DNA of 61,835 nucleotides. Origin: Myxococcota bacterium. GTDB taxonomy: Bacteria; Myxococcota_A; UBA796; GCA-2862545. The stretch lies in assembly GCA_039208735.1 (NCBI GenBank), contig JBCCQY010000046.1, positions 1-61,835 of the forward strand. Reading direction: 5' to 3'. Shown piece after piece: positions 34,483 to 41,869 of the stretch. The position numbers and the translations under genes are program-made. The notes below the pieces were generated by a model that saw only the letters and a program-made list of their open reading frames with translations, was not told the DNA's origin and did no database searches. How positions within the stretch are numbered: the stretch's first letter is position 1; every line of letters begins with the position of its first letter.

Positions 34483-36195
34483 TCACTCGCAGGTGTAGCG
34501 ACCTTCGGGATCGGTGGGCTCGACGCCCTCCCGATAAAGCTCGGTCGAAGGGTCTCCGTAGAAGACGTAGGCCTGCCAGGTGGGGTCGTCGCGATCCGCG
34601 CCTCGCTTGCGCAGGCATCGCATGATCTCGGTGACCGGGGCCCGGCCGTAGGCCGCGATGCTCGATTCGACGTTCTCGTAAAAGGCTTCTGCAAAAGCCG
34701 CCGCTTCTTCATCTCCCACCGGCCACAACGCGCCGATGTAGCCTGAGGCGCCAGCGTCGAGCATGACGGGGGCCCACCCCTCGACGATGTTGGCTGTGGC
34801 ATCGGCCTGGCCAAGTTCGCAGGCATTGAAGAAGATGAGGGTTTGCCGTTCGCGGAGCCGTTTGTCATCGAGGCCGACGAACGCCGTGGAGTCGAACGCG
34901 CCGTCCTCGAGCCGTAGGGCGTAGCGCGTGGCGCTGCCTTCGGTCGTCTGGGCATCCCCATGCCCGGCGAAGTGGAGCACCCCGTTGGGGGGATCCTTCA
35001 CCACCGCGGCCACCGAAGCCGCCACGCCCGGGAGCCTCCGAAAGCCTTCCATGCGGTTGAGCGCCTCGAGTTCCCGCTTCACCGCGGGCAGGGCATCCCC
35101 ACCTTCGTAAGTGGGCACCATCGCGACGAGTTCTCGGTAGTCGATGCGTGTGGGAGGGACCGTCAGGCCGGACATCCCCATGCGCAGATGCCATCGACCC
35201 AGCTGAAAGCGTGTGCCCAACGGAGCCAACGTCGCCTCTTCGGTCACGGGGCGCAGCAACTCCCAGGGAAATCCAGGTACGTTGGTGTAGATGCGCAACG
35301 CGTTGACCTCAGGGTCCTGGTAGATGCGCAGCAGATGTTCCCGAATGGGGGCCGGGGTGAGCGGCCACAGCTGAGCTCCCAGCCCCTTCACCATGCCCAT
35401 TCCCACTGGGTCTCGGTCCACCCGATCGAGGCCGCGGGCCCGAATGGCGGCGAGTTTGGGGGTGAGAAATGCGGGGAGGGCGGTGCGATCGAAGTTGACC
35501 ACGGAGTGTGCCGTCGTCTTGCCCGGCTCGTTGATGACCACGAGCGCCTTTGTGTCGTCGATGGCGAGCAGATGCAGCTCATGGCTTGGGACCGTGGATC
35601 GGACCGCGGCCCCCTGGTCACCCACCACATCCGTCACCGGTAGCGGGTTGGCCGACGGCGCGTCGACGGCCTGCACCGTGCGGCCGATCTGCCCCATGAA
35701 CGAGCCCTCATGGAAAAGATAGGCTTCGACAGATGCTTTTCCGCTGCTGGGGACCGCGTCGAGGGTCAGCTCGTAGCGGGCGAGCGTGGAGGGGCCTTCC
35801 TGCGGGAGTTGGATGGTCCGAAAGTCATCGCCGTCAATGGTGAAGTCTGGGGCGGATAGCAACACGTTGATCGACCAGGCTTTGATGCCTTCCTTGAGCG
35901 TTGGCAGCTCCAGCTTGAGCGCGCCCTGGGTCTCTTCGTCCTCGCCTGAAATGACCACGGCGGCGGCGTTCCCGGAGGGAGCGGCGTCGGTGAGGCCCAC
36001 GAACAGTGTGAAGGGTTTGGCCTTGACCACCTCGCCCGGCATCACCATTCGGGGATGGCGCTCGAGCACGACGGTGGATTCAGAGAGTGGAGGAGGAGGA
36101 GGATCACCCTCTTCTTTCACCGGACTTCGTTGGAGGGCGCATGCCATGAGCTGGCCCACCAGGGCGATTGGGATGTACTTCGCCAAGAACCTCAC
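34483..36195 (-). CDS. CHAT-domain (caspase-like) protein with a predicted lipoprotein signal
   Basis: PWELL, catalytic LHFAGHG and FFNACE, GALWPV.D, AYVFYGDP; N-terminus MRFLAKYIPIALVGQLMAC. Confidence 0.85.
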   Translation of the reverse strand: MRFLAKYIPIALVGQLMACALQRSPVKEEGDPPPPPLSESTVVLERHPRMVMPGEVVKAKPFTLFVGLTDAAPSGNAAAVVISGEDEETQGALKLELPTLKEGIKAWSINVLLSAPDFTIDGDDFRTIQLPQEGPSTLARYELTLDAVPSSGKASVEAYLFHEGSFMGQIGRTVQAVDAPSANPLPVTDVVGDQGAAVRSTVPSHELHLLAIDDTKALVVINEPGKTTAHSVVNFDRTALPAFLTPKLAAIRARGLDRVDRDPVGMGMVKGLGAQLWPLTPAPIREHLLRIYQDPEVNALRIYTNVPGFPWELLRPVTEEATLAPLGTRFQLGRWHLRMGMSGLTVPPTRIDYRELVAMVPTYEGGDALPAVKRELEALNRMEGFRRLPGVAASVAAVVKDPPNGVLHFAGHGDAQTTEGSATRYALRLEDGAFDSTAFVGLDDKRLRERQTLIFFNACELGQADATANIVEGWAPVMLDAGASGYIGALWPVGDEEAAAFAEAFYENVESSIAAYGRAPVTEIMRCLRKRGADRDDPTWQAYVFYGDPSTELYREGVEPTDPEGRYTCE

Positions 36196-36230
36196 GCTGT
36201 TCTCCTCCGCGGGAAGGGTACCTCAGGCAC

Positions 36231-37961
36231 ATGCACGAACTCGTGACCGCTTGGCAACGAGACTGGCGAATTGCTCAATTGCGAGAGGAATTGGGCGCGG
36301 CCCTGGCCGTGACCGTTGTAGGGGTCCCTCAGGGGGTTGCTTACGCCGTCGTCGCCGGACTCCCACCCATCATGGGCCTCTTTGCGGGGGCATTGCCCGC
36401 CATCGTGGCGTCGGCCTTTCGGAGTTCGCGGCATGTGGTGACGGGACCGACAAATGCGCTGTCGCTGCTCGTCGGCACCACCGTCGCGGTACAAGCCAAC
36501 GACCCGGTCGCCGCGGCGACGACCCTCGCGGTGATGATCGGATTGATTCAGGTGGCCGCAGGTGGGCTACGCCTTGGCAGCATCGTCGACTACGTTTCGG
36601 CCGCCGTGGTCACAGGCTACGTCACCGGCGCCGGGATTCTGATTGCCGTAGGGCAGTTGCCCGCGCTCACGGGCATTCCTCGCGTATCGGGAGACCTGAT
36701 CACCCAACTTTGGGGTTGGGTCAGTGGATTATCAGGGACGCATCTTCCTTCACTTGCCCTGGGGCTCCTCACGGTGGCCGCCCTGTTGCTGGCCCGGCAG
36801 CGATTGGGCAAGTCTGGGGCGGCAATCCTGGCCGTCGTGGGCAGTGGGGTCTTGGTCTGGGCGTTGGGCGCTCGCGCCTCGGACATCGCGTTGGTTGGCG
36901 ATCTGGCCGCCACCGAGTCGGGGTTGCCCTCATTGACGTGGCCCGATTTTTCGTTGGTCGATGACCTTTGGCCCGTCGCGTTTGCAGGGGTCCTGCTCTC
37001 GCTCGTCGAGTCGACCTCGGTGGCTCGTTCGATTGCCTCAAAGACCGGGCAGCGCTTGTCGCTCCAACTCGAATTCATCGGCACGGGCCTTGCGAATCTC
37101 GTTGCGGGGCTTGGGTCGGGGTACCCCGTGAGTGGGAGCTTGGCTCGATCGACCCTCAATGTGCAGTCCGGGGCGCGGACCCGCTTCTCGGGCATGCTCT
37201 CGGGGGCTCTCATGTTGGTGGTCCTGCTGGGGTTGGGTCCGTTGGTGGACCGCTTGCCGATGCCAGCGCTCGCCGGACTGATCGTGGTCATTGCCGCCGA
37301 TCTGGTCGATTTCAGCCGCATTCGACGGTTGCTACGGGCGACCTTTGCCGACCGCCTCGCCTTTCTGGGGACCCTGCTCGGCACCTTCGCCCTGCCCCTC
37401 GACCAAGCGATCGCGGTGGGGGTCGGGATCAACCTGGTCCTGTTCCTTCGTCAGTCGCAATGGATCGTGGTCCGTGAGCTTCGCGTCAATGAGGATGGAC
37501 TGCTGCAGGAAGTGGAGCCAGATGCGGTCGTGCCGGGACTCAGACGGTGCCCGGCCATTCGCATTTTGCACCTTGAAGGACCGCTGTTTTTCGGTGCAGC
37601 CGGGGCCCTCGACGACGCCCTCACCGAGGCGATGGCCGACCCTGCGGTTCGCGTGGTCGTGGTGCGGCTTAAACGCGCCTCGGGACTTGATTTTACGACG
37701 GCAGAGGTGTTCGCGCAGGCGCATCGTCGGATGGTGGCCTCAGATCGACGCCTGATGCTTGTCGGCCTTCGGCCGAAGATGATCGAGACCCTCGCGCGAA
37801 GTGGCGTGGCCGAGGCGTTGGGCGATGCGGTGTATCCCACGCAACCCGGCTGGTTCGTGGCCATGCGAGAGGCGCTTGCCGCGGCCGTTGCGAGTCTGCC
37901 GCCCCATCACCCCGAGGGCATCGAATGCCCCGTGGCGACGGTCACCGATCCGGATGGTTGA
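36231..37961 (+). CDS. SulP/SLC26 anion transporter with C-terminal STAS domain
   Basis: PQGVAYA..AGLPP..GL, GPTNA, SGSLARS..N..SGART, GPLFFGAA. Confidence 0.93.
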   Translation: MHELVTAWQRDWRIAQLREELGAALAVTVVGVPQGVAYAVVAGLPPIMGLFAGALPAIVASAFRSSRHVVTGPTNALSLLVGTTVAVQANDPVAAATTLAVMIGLIQVAAGGLRLGSIVDYVSAAVVTGYVTGAGILIAVGQLPALTGIPRVSGDLITQLWGWVSGLSGTHLPSLALGLLTVAALLLARQRLGKSGAAILAVVGSGVLVWALGARASDIALVGDLAATESGLPSLTWPDFSLVDDLWPVAFAGVLLSLVESTSVARSIASKTGQRLSLQLEFIGTGLANLVAGLGSGYPVSGSLARSTLNVQSGARTRFSGMLSGALMLVVLLGLGPLVDRLPMPALAGLIVVIAADLVDFSRIRRLLRATFADRLAFLGTLLGTFALPLDQAIAVGVGINLVLFLRQSQWIVVRELRVNEDGLLQEVEPDAVVPGLRRCPAIRILHLEGPLFFGAAGALDDALTEAMADPAVRVVVVRLKRASGLDFTTAEVFAQAHRRMVASDRRLMLVGLRPKMIETLARSGVAEALGDAVYPTQPGWFVAMREALAAAVASLPPHHPEGIECPVATVTDPDG

Positions 37962-39321
37962 GCAGGATGCGACATCCCGCTTCCTCCCCTCGCGCCATCA
38001 CCCGAGCCACGGCACCTGGTGAGCCTTGGAAGGTGAGGATCATGCCTTCATCGTCGGCGTCGCTATCGACCACTCGGCACGCGCTGTAGATCAGCGTCGA
38101 GACCTCGGCCGCCGCATAAGGAACGTGCAGGGTGGCGTTCACCAATCGAGCGCCCCGAACCGTCTCGATGAGGGCGTCACGCAGGGCATCGGTATCGGTG
38201 GCGTCGTGGCTGCTCACCACCCGGTAGGGCCCCACGGTGCCCTCGTCCAACTCGGGAAGCACGTCGACCTGGTCCCGCTTGTTGAAGATCGTGAATCGAG
38301 CGATACCGTCTGCGCCGAGGGCGTCCAGCTGCGCTTCGGTGGTCTTGAGGTGCAATGGCCATTCGGGGTCCGACAGATCCACCACGATCGCGAGCAGATC
38401 TGCCTCTTGGGCCTCGGAAAGCGTGGTCGAGAAGCTCGCGAGCAATCGCTTTGGGAGGTCGCGGATGAACCCCACCGTGTCGGTGAGCAACACCTCGCCG
38501 CCATGTCGGGTGAGGCATCGGGTCGTGGTGTCGAGCGTTTCAAAGGGTCGGGACCGCGTGGCCAGTTCGGAGCCTGACAACGCGTTCATCAGCGAGGTCT
38601 TGCCCGCGTTGGTGTAGCCCACCAACGCGATGCGCAAGGTGTCTTCGCGCCGTTTGCGATGTTCGGCGCCGGCTCGTTCGAGCTTGCTGAATGCGCGCCT
38701 TAGGCGCACGAGTCGGTCGTCGATCTGGCGTGCCAGTAGCTCGGAGGCCGTTTCACCGGCCCCCCGACCGTACAGGCCACCCCCGGCCTGTTGATCCATG
38801 TCGAGCCCCAACCCGCGTATCCGGGGTCGGAGGTACTGCAGTCGCGCAATCTCGACCTGGATGCGGGCCGCCTTGGAGCGCGCATGCCGGTGGAACACAC
38901 CCAAGATGACAATCTCACGGTCGCTTACCGAAAGGCCAGCAATGTCTTCGAGATTTCGAGTTTGGGAGGGTGAGAGCGGCGCGTCGAGCACGAGCAGGGA
39001 GGCGCCTGCGGCACGGGCCCGATCGGCCAGGGCTCGCGCGACGCCGGGACCTACATGGGTTCGACGATGCGGATTTTTGAGCACTCGGCTTTCATGGCCG
39101 ACGATCGGATGACCGTTGGCCTCGACAAGGCCGAGGATCTCGGCAAGCTGGGCGTCGCGTTGCACATCTGAGGTCCAATCGCCCAACGACACCACGTAGG
39201 TGGCGGCGGGGGCATCGGGTTCGAGTTCGGGAGGCGCCTCGGAAAGGAGGGCCTCGATTTGGCCGTCTTCTGGCACAGACACGTCACCGTGCTCGGGCAC
39301 GGGGTCAGATCGAAATCGCAT
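37942..39321 (-). CDS. hflX: HflX-family ribosome-splitting GTPase (divergent paralog)
   Basis: LSPSQTRNLE, DREIVILGVF..HA, GAGET, G1 GYTNAGKT, TLDTTTR, DTVGF, NKRD; ATG 39321 preferred over GTG 39345. Confidence 0.9.
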   Translation of the reverse strand: MRFRSDPVPEHGDVSVPEDGQIEALLSEAPPELEPDAPAATYVVSLGDWTSDVQRDAQLAEILGLVEANGHPIVGHESRVLKNPHRRTHVGPGVARALADRARAAGASLLVLDAPLSPSQTRNLEDIAGLSVSDREIVILGVFHRHARSKAARIQVEIARLQYLRPRIRGLGLDMDQQAGGGLYGRGAGETASELLARQIDDRLVRLRRAFSKLERAGAEHRKRREDTLRIALVGYTNAGKTSLMNALSGSELATRSRPFETLDTTTRCLTRHGGEVLLTDTVGFIRDLPKRLLASFSTTLSEAQEADLLAIVVDLSDPEWPLHLKTTEAQLDALGADGIARFTIFNKRDQVDVLPELDEGTVGPYRVVSSHDATDTDALRDALIETVRGARLVNATLHVPYAAAEVSTLIYSACRVVDSDADDEGMILTFQGSPGAVARVMARGEEAGCRILLNHPDR

Positions 39322-39394
39322 GAACAGACACTTCGTGAAAGCCACCGGAGTGGCGAGGGGATTGAAAGGACCGAAACCGCGGAGTTTGGTCGAA

Positions 39395-39418
39395 TCAGAC
39401 GAAGTGCAAAATGCCCAT
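39395..39418 (-). promoter_or_regulatory. Leader uORF MGILHFV* upstream of hflX; putative translational attenuator
   Basis: Minus strand reads GGAGG-N8-ATG GGC ATT TTG CAC TTC GTC TGA; 39399-39406 is the perfect reverse complement of 39329-39336, next to the hflX start. Confidence 0.72.
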
Positions 39419-39492
39419 GGGCCTGGCCTCCAGAGGAGTGGCAGTGAGGGCTGTAGCCGGCCGACGAACCATCGACCAGGTATTCACTCGGT

Positions 39493-40434
39493 ATGTGGAC
39501 CCGACTTCAGGCCACCCTCGGTGGTTGGCTGCTCCAGGCGATGACGGCAACCCAACACCGGAGGCTCGGAGTCACCGTGCACGAGCACGTCGATGCGACG
39601 GGGCGACGCACACCGTGGCTCGACCTTGGACGACCCGAACGCGGCACCGTGGTCTGGCTGCACGGCTTTGCGGACCGCCCCGACACGTTTCTAAGGGTGG
39701 CTCCTGGTTTGTTGCCCGACTACCGCATTCTCGCCCCGGCGATGCCGGGGTTTGGCCATGGGTGGATCGAGCCGACCGAGACCCACGATGTCCATGCCTT
39801 TGGGCGATGGATGGCCGATGTTCTCGACGACATTGTCGACGAACCGGTCCACCTCGTGGGCAACTCGCTCGGTGGCGCCACCGCGCTCGCCATCGCTGCC
39901 CAACGTCCGGCGTGGTTGCGGTCGCTCGTGCCCTTGAACTCGGCGGGCATGCGGGTTCGCGGCGCGCCTTCGGTGCTCGAGGAATTCGAACAAGGCGACA
40001 TCCTCTTCGAGGTCCGGGGCCGACCCGACTACGATCGGCTCATGAAGAGGCTCTTCGCCAAACCCATGGTCGTTCCTGCCGTGGTCAACCATTTCCTTTG
40101 CTCCGAATACGCCCGACAAGCGGATTGGTTTGTCCGGGTGGCTGGCGATCTGGCGAGCAGTCGCGAGACGCTTCATGGGGAGGGGTGGTCCTCCGCGATC
40201 GACCTCACCGCCATCGATGTGCCCACGTTGGTGCTGTGGGGGGACCGCGACTCGCTGTTTCCGGTGTCTCATGCACAGGCGATGGCGCGTCAAATCCCCG
40301 GCGCGCGGCTCGAGCTTATTCCCGGCATCGGACATTGCCCCCATCTCGAGTCACCGGGAAACCTTGCACAAGCGGTACGCAGGTTCGTGCAGACGGTCGG
40401 ACGGGGGAATACGGGGCCTCGCCGAGAAGGGTAG
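39493..40434 (+). CDS. Alpha/beta hydrolase (lipase/esterase)
   Basis: LHGF, PGFG, GNSLGG, LWGDRD, GHCP. Confidence 0.9.
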   Translation: MWTRLQATLGGWLLQAMTATQHRRLGVTVHEHVDATGRRTPWLDLGRPERGTVVWLHGFADRPDTFLRVAPGLLPDYRILAPAMPGFGHGWIEPTETHDVHAFGRWMADVLDDIVDEPVHLVGNSLGGATALAIAAQRPAWLRSLVPLNSAGMRVRGAPSVLEEFEQGDILFEVRGRPDYDRLMKRLFAKPMVVPAVVNHFLCSEYARQADWFVRVAGDLASSRETLHGEGWSSAIDLTAIDVPTLVLWGDRDSLFPVSHAQAMARQIPGARLELIPGIGHCPHLESPGNLAQAVRRFVQTVGRGNTGPRREG

Positions 40435-40447
40435 GAGGGAAGGAACG

Positions 40448-41869
40448 ATGATGTGGGCGTTTGTGTCTCTGGCGATGGCCCAGCAGCTACCCGATCGGTT
40501 CAACGGTCAGGTCATGCGGCCCAGCATCGATGCTCAGAAGACCTTGTGGGCCGAGCAGAGTGCGACCGCACCGGACGGCTACGCGACCTTTCGGGTGTAC
40601 ACGCAGTACGCGAATGGTGTGGTTCGCGATCGTTCGACGGCGGTGACGCAGCGCTTGGTTGACGATCTGCTGGAGTTCGACCTGCTGGGGGCTTGGCACT
40701 GGCGTGGGCTGCGCTTGGGCGCCCACATTCCGATTTACGGTCTGACGACGGGCGATGATGCGACGACGCAGCCGGGATTGGGCGACATCGCGTTTGATGT
40801 CAAGGCCACCGTGCTCGAGGGAGAGACCGACCCTTTTGGGGCTGCGATCATCGCTCGCATGCTGCTGCCCACTACGTCCGTGCAGATTCCTTTGGGGAGT
40901 ACCGGGCTGGGCAGTGAGATCTTTGTGGCGGCGGATCGCGACATTGATCAGTTCACGTTGGTCACCAACCTGGGGGTTCGGATTGGACCCCAAGCCCGGG
41001 TTGGCGACATTGGCTGGGACGATCAGTTCTTTGGTCGGGTCGCGGTGGCGCTGTCGGGCGATCGATTTGGCGGGTCGTTGGAGGGTGGTTTGCAAACCAA
41101 CTTCGCAAGCGCCGAAAACCCGGCGGGGACGGCGGCCGAGCTGTTGCTTGCGGGTCATGCCAAGCTCACCGACCTGTGGACGCTGCGTGGTGGTGCGTCG
41201 ACAGGCTTGTCGACGAGCCCAGGTTCTCCACTGTTCCGAGTGCTTGCGGGAATCTCCTATGAGCCCGATCCGTCGCCAGACAATGATCGCGACGGTCTAG
41301 TGGACCGTGAAGACGGCTGCCCCCGCGATGCTGAGGATCCCGACGGCTACGAGGATTACGACGGCTGCCCCGACGCGTCGTACTCGGTGCAGGTGATGGT
41401 CACCGACCCAGATGGCGATCCTCTGGAAGCTTTGGTGGTGCTCGACGGGGTCGAGAGCCACCACCTCGATCTTGGCGACCGGGTGGCCACGGTCCATCCC
41501 GGGCTCTACCGCCTGATTGCCAAGGTGGACGGCTACGATTCGTATGTGGGCGAGGTCGATATTCCCGCCGTGCAGGGCCATCAGGTCAAGGTCGAGGTTT
41601 CGCCGCGCCAGGGTCAGGTTCGCGTCTGGGCCGTCGATGAAGTGGGCAATCGGGTGGCGGCTCGCTTCACGATCGATGGGTTGGATTCACAGCCTACGGG
41701 TGGCGAGCCTGTCACGGTGCGCACCGGAGAGCACGCGATTGTCGTGACCGCCGATGGATACCGGGCCGCGCCTGTCTCGGTGAACGTGGCACACGGTCAG
41801 ACGAGGGCGTTGTCCGTCGTGCTCGACCGGTTGCCCGCGGCCCCGTCCAGCCGCGACGACGACGAGTAG
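40448..41869 (+). CDS. Outer-membrane beta-barrel protein with TSP3 Ca-binding repeats and C-terminal PEGA/Ig-like domains
   Basis: Signal peptide MMWAFVSLAMA; GLGDIAFDVK barrel motif; DNDRDGLVDREDGCP...DGYEDYDGCPD; purine-rich RBS. Confidence 0.75.
   Translation: MMWAFVSLAMAQQLPDRFNGQVMRPSIDAQKTLWAEQSATAPDGYATFRVYTQYANGVVRDRSTAVTQRLVDDLLEFDLLGAWHWRGLRLGAHIPIYGLTTGDDATTQPGLGDIAFDVKATVLEGETDPFGAAIIARMLLPTTSVQIPLGSTGLGSEIFVAADRDIDQFTLVTNLGVRIGPQARVGDIGWDDQFFGRVAVALSGDRFGGSLEGGLQTNFASAENPAGTAAELLLAGHAKLTDLWTLRGGASTGLSTSPGSPLFRVLAGISYEPDPSPDNDRDGLVDREDGCPRDAEDPDGYEDYDGCPDASYSVQVMVTDPDGDPLEALVVLDGVESHHLDLGDRVATVHPGLYRLIAKVDGYDSYVGEVDIPAVQGHQVKVEVSPRQGQVRVWAVDEVGNRVAARFTIDGLDSQPTGGEPVTVRTGEHAIVVTADGYRAAPVSVNVAHGQTRALSVVLDRLPAAPSSRDDDE

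Follow-up and report, generated by a model that had tools for sequence, protein, structure and literature searches.

A conserved six- to seven-codon leader ORF predicted to mask the ribosome-binding site of an hflX paralogue in a Myxococcota bacterium: a candidate antibiotic-responsive switch

The hflX locus and its leader

The minus strand of a 61,835-nucleotide contig from a Myxococcota bacterium (GenBank assembly GCA_039208735.1, contig JBCCQY010000046.1; the whole of this stretch is called the window below) carries a paralogue of hflX, preceded by a leader in which a seven-codon upstream open reading frame (uORF) with its own Shine-Dalgarno (SD) sequence is complementary to the ribosome-binding site (RBS) of hflX. 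We describe here this leader, its conservation among related loci and the case for regarding it as an attenuator that answers to ribosome-targeting antibiotics, as put forward in an original prediction made from the sequence alone. The GGAGG, the seven-codon frame, the complementarity and the two hairpins named in that prediction all lie at the positions it had given; they are listed here with the other paired segments of the minimum-free-energy (MFE) fold and with hflX itself.

39431-39427, minus strand: SD sequence GGAGG of the uORF, 8 nt ahead of its ATG
39418-39395, minus strand: seven-codon uORF MGILHFV followed by TGA (ATG GGC ATT TTG CAC TTC GTC TGA)
39412-39420, minus strand: second pairing strand CCAUGGGCA, containing the uORF AUG; partner 39326-39319 plus 39317 (MFE fold)
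39399-39407, minus strand: anti-SD strand within the uORF, GCACUUCGU, pairing with 39336-39328 (MFE fold)
39369-39391, minus strand: spacer hairpin 1, GACCAAACU...GGUUUCGGUC (predicted fold)
39341-39354, minus strand: spacer hairpin 2, GCCAC-UCCG-GUGGC (predicted fold)
39328-39336, minus strand: ACGAAGUGU, weak SD region of hflX, which the uORF is predicted to mask (fold and duplex energy)
39317-39326, minus strand: start-codon region of hflX, UGUUCAUGCG, paired with the uORF start region (predicted fold)
37942-39321, minus strand: hflX paralogue, 459 aa from the ATG at 39321, with a DMDQQAGG loop (TIGR03156, Pfam and clade alignment)

CACTTCGT (39406-39399) in the uORF and ACGAAGTG (39336-39329) are exact reverse complements of one another, the latter occupying the positions 8-15 nt ahead of the hflX ATG at 39321. 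In the MFE fold this pairing grows to 9 bp (39407-39399 with 39336-39328), its uORF strand GCACUUCGU running from the last base of codon 4 to the second base of codon 7, and a second helix of nine pairs (39420-39412 with 39326-39319 and 39317) connects the CAUG start regions of the uORF and of hflX, both spacer hairpins sitting between the two helices. Hairpin 1 is not followed by a U-tract and received no score in a terminator scan. The uORF/RBS duplex reaches -20.5 kcal/mol (500 shuffled uORFs as reference: z = -3.6, p = 0.004), and the MFE fold pairs 17 of the 19 RBS nucleotides (positions -15 to +4) with the uORF; shuffled uORFs gave a mean of 3.4, and none of 20 reached 17. In the 9.4-Mb genome of the organism only 18 ORFs, the window uORF among them, combine an SD, six to seven codons and a penultimate Phe; none of the other 17 stands ahead of a recognisable resistance gene, as judged from the translations of the eight that have a downstream ORF and with no family search.

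The hflX product scores 290.8 bits against TIGR03156 (cut-off 216.75), which places it in the HflX GTPase family, and contains the Pfam domains GTP-bdg_N (PF13167), GTP-bdg_M (PF16360) and MMR_HSR1 (PF01926). The start codon assumed in the original prediction was upheld by orthologous proteins, whose N-termini align from residue 1 of the frame opened at ATG 39321; two of these loci (L131 and L132) have a stop codon immediately ahead of the equivalent ATG, which favours the same start. An in-frame GTG at 39345 was rejected as an alternative, since the orthologues lack it. The first 45 or so residues of the clade proteins (39187-39321, minus strand, in the window) form a conserved N-terminal extension, S-x-P-[V/I]-E-E-H-x-E-V-P-L-A-D-[D/E]-G, which lies outside any family model, the TIGR03156 match beginning at residue 60 of the ORF. 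One sequencing-run contig covers 37300-39700, including the junction downstream of hflX, without differences, and that run may be the source of the window itself; fragments from close strains cover parts of the region and show one difference, G>A at 39449, a position in the leader region ahead of the uORF SD.

Conservation of the uORF and of its pairing with the hflX RBS

The comparison was made with 26 loci of the clade to which this hflX belongs, namely the window, five loci from genomes and 20 from metagenomes, the last retrieved with the clade-specific part of the protein (motif DMDQQAG) as query and 48-74% identical to the window over the whole protein. Twenty-four loci have at least 286 nt upstream of hflX and enter the counts given here, L129 (108 nt) and L133 (cut off) falling outside and L120 and L121 being identical. 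With a uORF defined as an ATG or GTG start followed by six to seven sense codons within 320 nt upstream, one was present in 24 of 24 loci, mostly a single one per locus; 21 have seven codons and three have six, 19 start with ATG and five with GTG, and the stop codon varies among TGA, TAG and TAA. An SD-like sequence precedes the uORF in 18 of the 23 orthologous loci. The conservation in orthologues on which the original prediction had made its case depend is thus borne out, at a level far above that of shuffled sequences: among loci with at least 300 nt upstream, a six- to seven-codon ORF was observed in 23 of 23 (mean 4.9 and maximum 10 in 200 dinucleotide shuffles; six on the reverse strand), a penultimate Phe in 18 of 23 (shuffles, mean 0.095 and maximum 2; reverse strand, 0) and both an SD and this Phe in 13 of 23 (0 in shuffles and on the reverse strand), counts that are not independent trials since the clade loci are related. 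Outside the uORF and RBS elements the leaders are too diverged to align. As a control, 104 other hflX loci were inspected in the same way, and two of them have a six- to seven-codon ORF with the Phe and none has the SD as well.

The encoded peptides follow the pattern M-x3-[H/R/S/N/P]-F-[V/L/S/R/Q]-stop, with Phe as the penultimate residue in 19 of the 24 uORFs; examples are MWKYRFV, MDFNHFS, MFTLSFV, MVFTHFL and MWFFSFV, and most peptides have one to three Phe among their six non-Met residues. The spacing of this Phe from start and stop is fixed and in frame throughout, and the residue is kept where the helix uses other codons, as in L116, where it is encoded by UUU and pairing involves codons 2-4, and in L117, where pairing involves codons 4-5. 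Beside it, Val (GUC, GUG, GUU) and Ser (UCC, UCG, AGC) are kept by differing codons, and Leu likewise by synonymous or unrelated ones. Comparison of the codons thus points to a constraint on the peptide as well as on the RNA, the two being not fully separable. The N-terminal Met-Gly-Ile, for which the peptide had been called ErmCL-like, is not conserved, so that at the peptide level this likeness has to be given up; what is kept is the length of six to seven codons and the penultimate Phe.

Twenty-two of the 24 uORFs are clear, and those of L118 and L124 are atypical. In these two loci the candidate frames are GTG-started and Arg-rich (VLIRRRR and VLIRRRG), hflX starts with TTG, pairing is weak, and the downstream gene, which encodes an ABC-F protein, has a long extra N-terminal region. 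These leaders may sense something else, or may use another uORF that was missed. A further short frame was seen in the window's own genome (G000:C31, about 38842-38862, plus strand), where a six-codon ORF, MFEIFS-stop, precedes an ORF at 38918-39862; it lies 76 nt upstream of a trypsin-like (HtrA-type) protease gene, and its SD context (CGGAG..GTCATC-ATG) resembles that of the hflX leaders of L113 and L115.

Pairing between the uORF and the hflX RBS, also named by the original prediction as a point to be checked in orthologues, proved to be conserved and to co-vary. At least nine of the 19 RBS nucleotides are paired with the uORF in 22 of 24 MFE folds (seven in L119 and five in L131), and the loci average 12.3 of 19, a figure that drops to 3.8 when the uORFs are shuffled. 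On average the two strands of one locus bind better than strands of different loci: cognate uORF/RBS duplexes have a mean energy of -18.4 kcal/mol versus -13.7 kcal/mol for non-cognate ones, and none of 10,000 permutations was as low as the cognate mean (p = 1e-4). GGAAG-type sequences are found at the hflX SD position in the orthologues, and both the sequence and the register of the helix shift between loci: AUGGUCUUCUUCCA pairs with UGGAAGAAACCAU in L004, CUGUUCUUCCA with UGGAAGAACAG in 11 perfect base pairs in L113, and CUACCGC with GCGGUAG in L117. The spacers between uORF and hflX range from 71 to 256 nt and contain differing hairpins. Reinitiation coupling between uORF and hflX was rejected, since such a spacer is too long for it.

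The effect of a ribosome on the uORF was modelled in 23 loci by forcing its footprint of about 29 nt to be unpaired and computing the probability that the RBS is unpaired, as follows.

Free leader: mean 0.29; window 0.25
Ribosome at the uORF start: mean 0.48; window 0.52
Ribosome with the last sense codon of the uORF in its P site: mean 0.46; window 0.53
Equal-sized control block within the spacer: mean 0.30; window 0.30

In these constraint folds a ribosome on the uORF is predicted to open the hflX RBS, as the original prediction had supposed, and the control block leaves it nearly as in the free leader.

No terminator-like site was detected by the scan in positions 39250-39650 of the window, and a terminator-like hairpin with a U-rich tail is present in two of the 23 spacers (L113 and L130). 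Because terminators are rare and the uORF-RBS helix is conserved, the conserved device is the masking of the RBS by the leader ORF. When the orthologues are anchored at the uORF start, a recurrent pair of boxes, cTTGnnn ... GCTAnnnT, can be read by eye in the alignment, and in the loci whose uORF has no SD (L119, L120, L127, L128 and L130-L132) a -10-like box (TAnnnT), also read by eye, ends 9-17 nt ahead of the ATG; from this spacing, the SD-less uORFs may be leaderless or nearly so. The comparative analysis demonstrates, at the level of sequence and predicted folding, a uORF of fixed length with a Phe-x-stop ending, a long-range helix around a variable spacer, and co-variation of its strands.

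Distribution of the clade and its ABC-F partner

Among 61 related genomes, close orthologues of the window hflX were found in G035, G030 and G013 (57-70% identity) and a split copy in G011, and none of four genomes of the same genus has a clade copy; when the search was widened to 154 genomes from the order and to 182 from the class (E <= 1e-80), G081 was the only addition, and the clade was found in five genomes, the window's own included. The clade is accessory and patchy. A whole-protein scan of genome contigs returned, among the matches listed, only distant hflX genes (30-45% identity), later used as controls, and a second, ordinary-looking hflX of the housekeeping type, 37% identical, is located on another contig of the window's own genome. 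In a FastTree phylogeny of 119 hflX segments, unrooted and built with no Listeria sequence, the 23 clade rows form one branch (support 100), next to a group (support 99) of second hflX paralogues from Myxococcota, Bdellovibrionota and Pseudomonadota; genomes from the same family and order have paralogues that group with named Myxococcota metagenome-assembled genomes, which supports the myxobacterial lineage of the original prediction only indirectly. One clade member, L113 (G011:C237), has an hflX at about 1554-2802 that is split, query residues 1-204 and 205-439 lying in different frames, a split that reflects either a pseudogene or an error in the assembly; the locus keeps the leader MDLFFQ, with its 11-bp perfect pairing, and the downstream ABC-F gene.

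The best solved relative of the hflX product is the Listeria HflXr chain 8a57_D (201 bits), followed by mycobacterial HflX (175) and E. coli HflX (168); 8A57 is the complex of HflXr with the 50S subunit (PMC9638945). The loop that reaches the peptidyl transferase centre reads GLGLDMDQQAGG..RG.GE in the clade and GQGEDMDQQSGKGG..RGSGE in Listeria HflXr, DMDQQ being common to both, and in a comparison of 130 hflX loci the clade form of this loop motif was confined to the clade.

Of the 26 clade loci, 23 have a gene for a two-domain ABC ATPase directly after hflX on the same strand; an ATGA in which the hflX stop and the start of this gene overlap is found in 14. The product has two ABC_tran domains, and its top NCBIfam family is the 'ribosomal protection-like ABC-F' (NF000355), ahead of Uup and EttA, with 245 and 220 bits, below the cut-off of 380. 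Among solved structures it comes closest to Lmo0919/VgaL (130.8 bits), VmlR (128) and a Vga-type lincosamide-streptogramin A resistance protein (126.9), with which it is colinear over the full length, whereas the matches to EttA and Uup are fragmentary. No such ABC-F neighbour was seen at the other, non-clade hflX loci. No such gene is seen in the window, in L122 or in L114, where the contig ends. In the window hflX ends against a convergent SulP gene, and no ABC-F remnant was detected there, the sole tblastn match with E < 1 lying inside the P-loop region of hflX; the window appears to have lost its ABC-F partner. The ABC-F gene and the two genes flanking hflX in the window are as follows.

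L003:2835-4223, plus strand: ABC-F gene after hflX; likewise in L004, L005, L112, L113, L115-L121 and L123-L133
39493-40434 of the window, plus strand: divergent alpha/beta hydrolase (Pfam)
36168-37961 of the window, plus strand: convergent SulP/STAS transporter (Pfam)

Since the upstream neighbours vary among the clade loci, the divergent hydrolase of the window is no conserved partner. A 346-codon Arg-rich ORF (39411-40451, plus strand) that overlaps the leader was rejected as an off-frame shadow of the hydrolase gene. The leader-hflX-ABC-F unit of L131, on a metagenome contig, has immediately upstream of it, in divergent orientation, a virginiamycin B lyase-family gene (L131:3-656, minus strand; PF24684, 57.7 bits).

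Proposed mechanism, rival explanations and known systems

The leader is very probably a real, conserved cis-regulatory element. From its architecture and gene context, we lean towards regarding it as a stalling-dependent translational switch that is induced by ribosome-targeting antibiotics. The uORF would be translated from its own start, and at rest the helix would hold translation of hflX low; a ribosome arrested on the uORF, presumably in a drug-dependent manner, would free the hflX RBS, so that a second ribosome could load on hflX. With a uORF of only 24 nt, the anti-SD strand lies entirely under a ribosome wherever on the uORF this stands, and a stall at the start codon, the last sense codon or the stop codon would therefore hold the helix open; that arrest occurs at the end of the frame is suggested by the constant length and the Phe-x-stop ending. 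In most relatives the leader would control the ABC-F gene too, and HflX, together with the ABC-F protein where present, would clear the stalled ribosome and so close a negative feedback loop, by analogy with msrD. A more specific proposal, which we hold only tentatively, is that M-x3-[H/R/S]-F-[V/L/S]-stop represents a new class of drug-dependent arrest peptide, which would jam the ribosome on the last sense codon or the stop codon of its own frame and unmask an operon for an HflXr-like GTPase and an ABC-F protein of the antibiotic-resistance (ARE) type, native to marine and soil Gram-negative predators, likely Myxococcota.

Several observations weigh against a drug-responsive switch of this kind. 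No known drug-arrest motif is recognisable in MGILHFV or its relatives and none of the 24 peptides contains Arg-Leu-Arg (RLR), so that no inducer can be named. Five of the 24 uORFs have no penultimate Phe (MVFFHHT, MDNFRDV, MWTAHLV and the VLIRRR[R/G] frames of L118 and L124), and, because the UUC codon belongs to the CUUC of the anti-SD strand, part of the conservation of Phe may act at the RNA level. In five of 23 loci (L118, L119, L122, L125 and L131) the pairing is no better than in shuffles (p > 0.25), the predicted gain in RBS accessibility is moderate, the hflX SD (GAAG) is weak, and a scan of 39250-39650 recognised no consensus promoter. The fold energy of the whole 146-nt leader is equalled by 8 of 200 shuffles (z = -1.9). 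As for the proteins, the clade loop is one residue longer than the loop in E. coli HflX and one shorter than that of Listeria HflXr, whose NTD2 loop exceeds the E. coli one by two residues (PMC9638945), and the neighbours of the clade in the tree are not Firmicutes, an indirect argument as regards HflXr given that Listeria is absent from the tree. Loop length and tree placement both set the clade outside HflXr, and a resistance function would accordingly be ascribed by analogy only. The ABC-F scores below the family cut-off belong here as well, as does the absence of a close ABC-F copy from the window's own genome (92.7% complete), whose best match is 36% identical.

The same uORF and RBS-masking switch might instead sense general translation stress, such as a shortage of charged tRNA-Phe, slow termination or heat, with HflX made whenever ribosomes stall physiologically. 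We consider this unlikely, although it would accord with the Phe-rich peptides and with the lack of a known drug-arrest motif, HflX is a general stress, ribosome-splitting factor (PMC9638945), and in another resistance regulon a uORF is reported to answer amino-acid starvation (bioRxiv 10.1101/2023.06.02.543512). Against it stand the separate housekeeping-type hflX of the genome, the accessory and patchy distribution of the clade, and the small number of Phe codons, mostly one per peptide, which is unlike classical Phe attenuators; the linkage to an ARE-like ABC-F gene in 23 of 26 loci is moreover a signature of drug-responsive operons, as these are described in PMC10201436. It is improbable that the uORF serves merely as a constitutive opener, its routine translation melting the helix and setting a low, fixed level of hflX with no stalling involved: the uORF start codon lies within the helix and its SD is strong, every ribosome that passes has to open the RBS, and the peptide sequence is variable, but the length of six to seven codons, the Phe-x-stop ending and the ABC-F link would then be left unexplained.

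An action mainly on transcription, through a Rho-dependent or intrinsic terminator in the spacer as in the rli80, msrDL and ARE-ABCF leaders, with RBS masking secondary, appears quite improbable. The characterised hflXr and ARE-ABCF leaders, in the accounts given by PMC6310831, PMC10201436 and PMC10314930, do all use premature termination, L113 and L130 have the hairpin and U-rich tail mentioned above, and Rho-dependent sites are invisible to the scan used; yet no terminator-like site was found in the window or in 21 of the 23 spacers, and the element that is conserved and co-varies is the uORF-RBS helix. That the short ORF and its complementarity have no function and arose by chance in a GC-rich intergenic region is hardly credible. 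The modest z of the whole-leader fold would fit such an origin, as would the result of the Rfam searches, which gave no leader match in the window at E up to 10 and none at gathering score in 20 orthologous loci, whereas the leader is conserved over 24 loci with proteins 48-74% identical, far above shuffles, and is further set apart by the test of cognate against non-cognate strands and by the control loci.

The closest mechanistic parallel to the switch that we favour is the translation attenuation of ermC, cat and cmlA, in which a leader peptide precedes a stem-loop that masks both the gene's SD and its start codon, as outlined in PMC8876359. The two have in common a short leader ORF with its own RBS, predicted unmasking by a ribosome on the leader, and independence from a terminator. 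Among the features of such attenuators, a leader ORF with an RBS, sequestration of the downstream RBS and disruption of the structure by a ribosome are found here, translation of the uORF being presumed and the latter two predicted computationally; a further feature is antibiotic-dependent ribosome arrest at a given leader codon, for which no known motif is recognisable in the peptide. In contrast to the ermC and cmlA type as PMC8876359 describes it, the leader ORF is here itself one strand of the masking helix, with the spacer looped out, and alternative stem pairs are absent; because the uORF is the anti-SD strand, the architecture is simpler than the four segments of ermC. The leader has seven codons as against nine for cmlA, and the regulated gene encodes a ribosome-rescue GTPase, joined by an ABC-F protein in relatives, instead of a methyltransferase, acetyltransferase or exporter.

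For hflX itself, the precedent named in the original prediction was Listeria hflXr. In Listeria monocytogenes the rli80 leader of hflXr (lmo0762) responds to lincomycin and erythromycin through a terminator/antiterminator and a 14-aa RLR peptide, and the same source treats the hflX duplications of delta-proteobacteria as independent (PMC6310831). The two systems share a leader ORF ahead of a second, specialised hflX copy and the DMDQQ loop; neither the RLR peptide nor transcription attenuation is present here, and the proteins form a clade apart from the Firmicutes one. A uORFC-6-1 motif has also been described upstream of hflX in Bacillales/Firmicutes, with an Arg-Leu-Arg peptide and a proposed transcriptional action (PMC8632094). 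It resembles the present leader as a conserved uORF candidate within a conserved RNA structure upstream of hflX, and differs from it in that no similarity of sequence or structure was detected, the coverage of uORFC-6-1 by Rfam being unchecked.

Leaders of other ribosome-protection genes offer further comparisons. The six-codon leader MsrDL (MYLIFM) of msrD, with a preferred UAA stop, controls an intrinsic terminator (PMC10314930). Like the present uORF it is very short and hydrophobic, depends on its length, has a penultimate Phe and controls a ribosome-protection factor; unlike it, MsrDL acts on an intrinsic terminator instead of an RBS, and here the stops are TGA, TAG and TAA, and arrest at the stop codon is hypothetical. 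For cplR, vmlR, vmlR2 and lsaA, ARE-ABCF genes that make cells resistant to pleuromutilins, lincosamides and streptogramin A (PLSA), PMC10201436 describes uORFs of three to four codons (MRI, MIN, MK[L/Q] and MAGN) coupled to terminators and, in the cplR leader, also an anti-SD that sequesters the SD. Uses of a uORF for induction of ABC-F ribosome protection are common to both, whereas here the uORF has seven codons and a conserved C-terminal motif, and hflX is regulated first. The present leader differs from the known hflX and ARE-ABCF leaders in peptide, length, mechanism, lineage and its hflX-first order. Full-text searches of the literature returned no account of this leader or of the pairing of hflX with ABC-F, although the phylogeny supplements of PMC6310831 and PMC9638945, which lay outside the search, may contain members of the clade.

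The present leader adds a very short peptide of conserved length that matches no known motif. Leader-peptide switches sense ribosome-targeting antibiotics, and arrest peptides inform on the interplay of drug and nascent chain in the exit tunnel. Because the sensor ORF is at the same time the anti-SD strand, the architecture is minimal and would be easy to transplant into reporters. The overlap of hflX with the ABC-F gene would let one sensor govern a splitting factor together with a target-protection factor. If the tentative proposal of a new class of arrest peptide were true, it would establish inducible target protection outside Gram-positive bacteria, possibly tuned to a class of inhibitors for which no sensor peptide is known. 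A switch of this kind would carry inducible systems of the hflX type beyond Firmicutes, into an environmental Gram-negative lineage noted for its chemical warfare, and would bear on the origin of such resistance functions.

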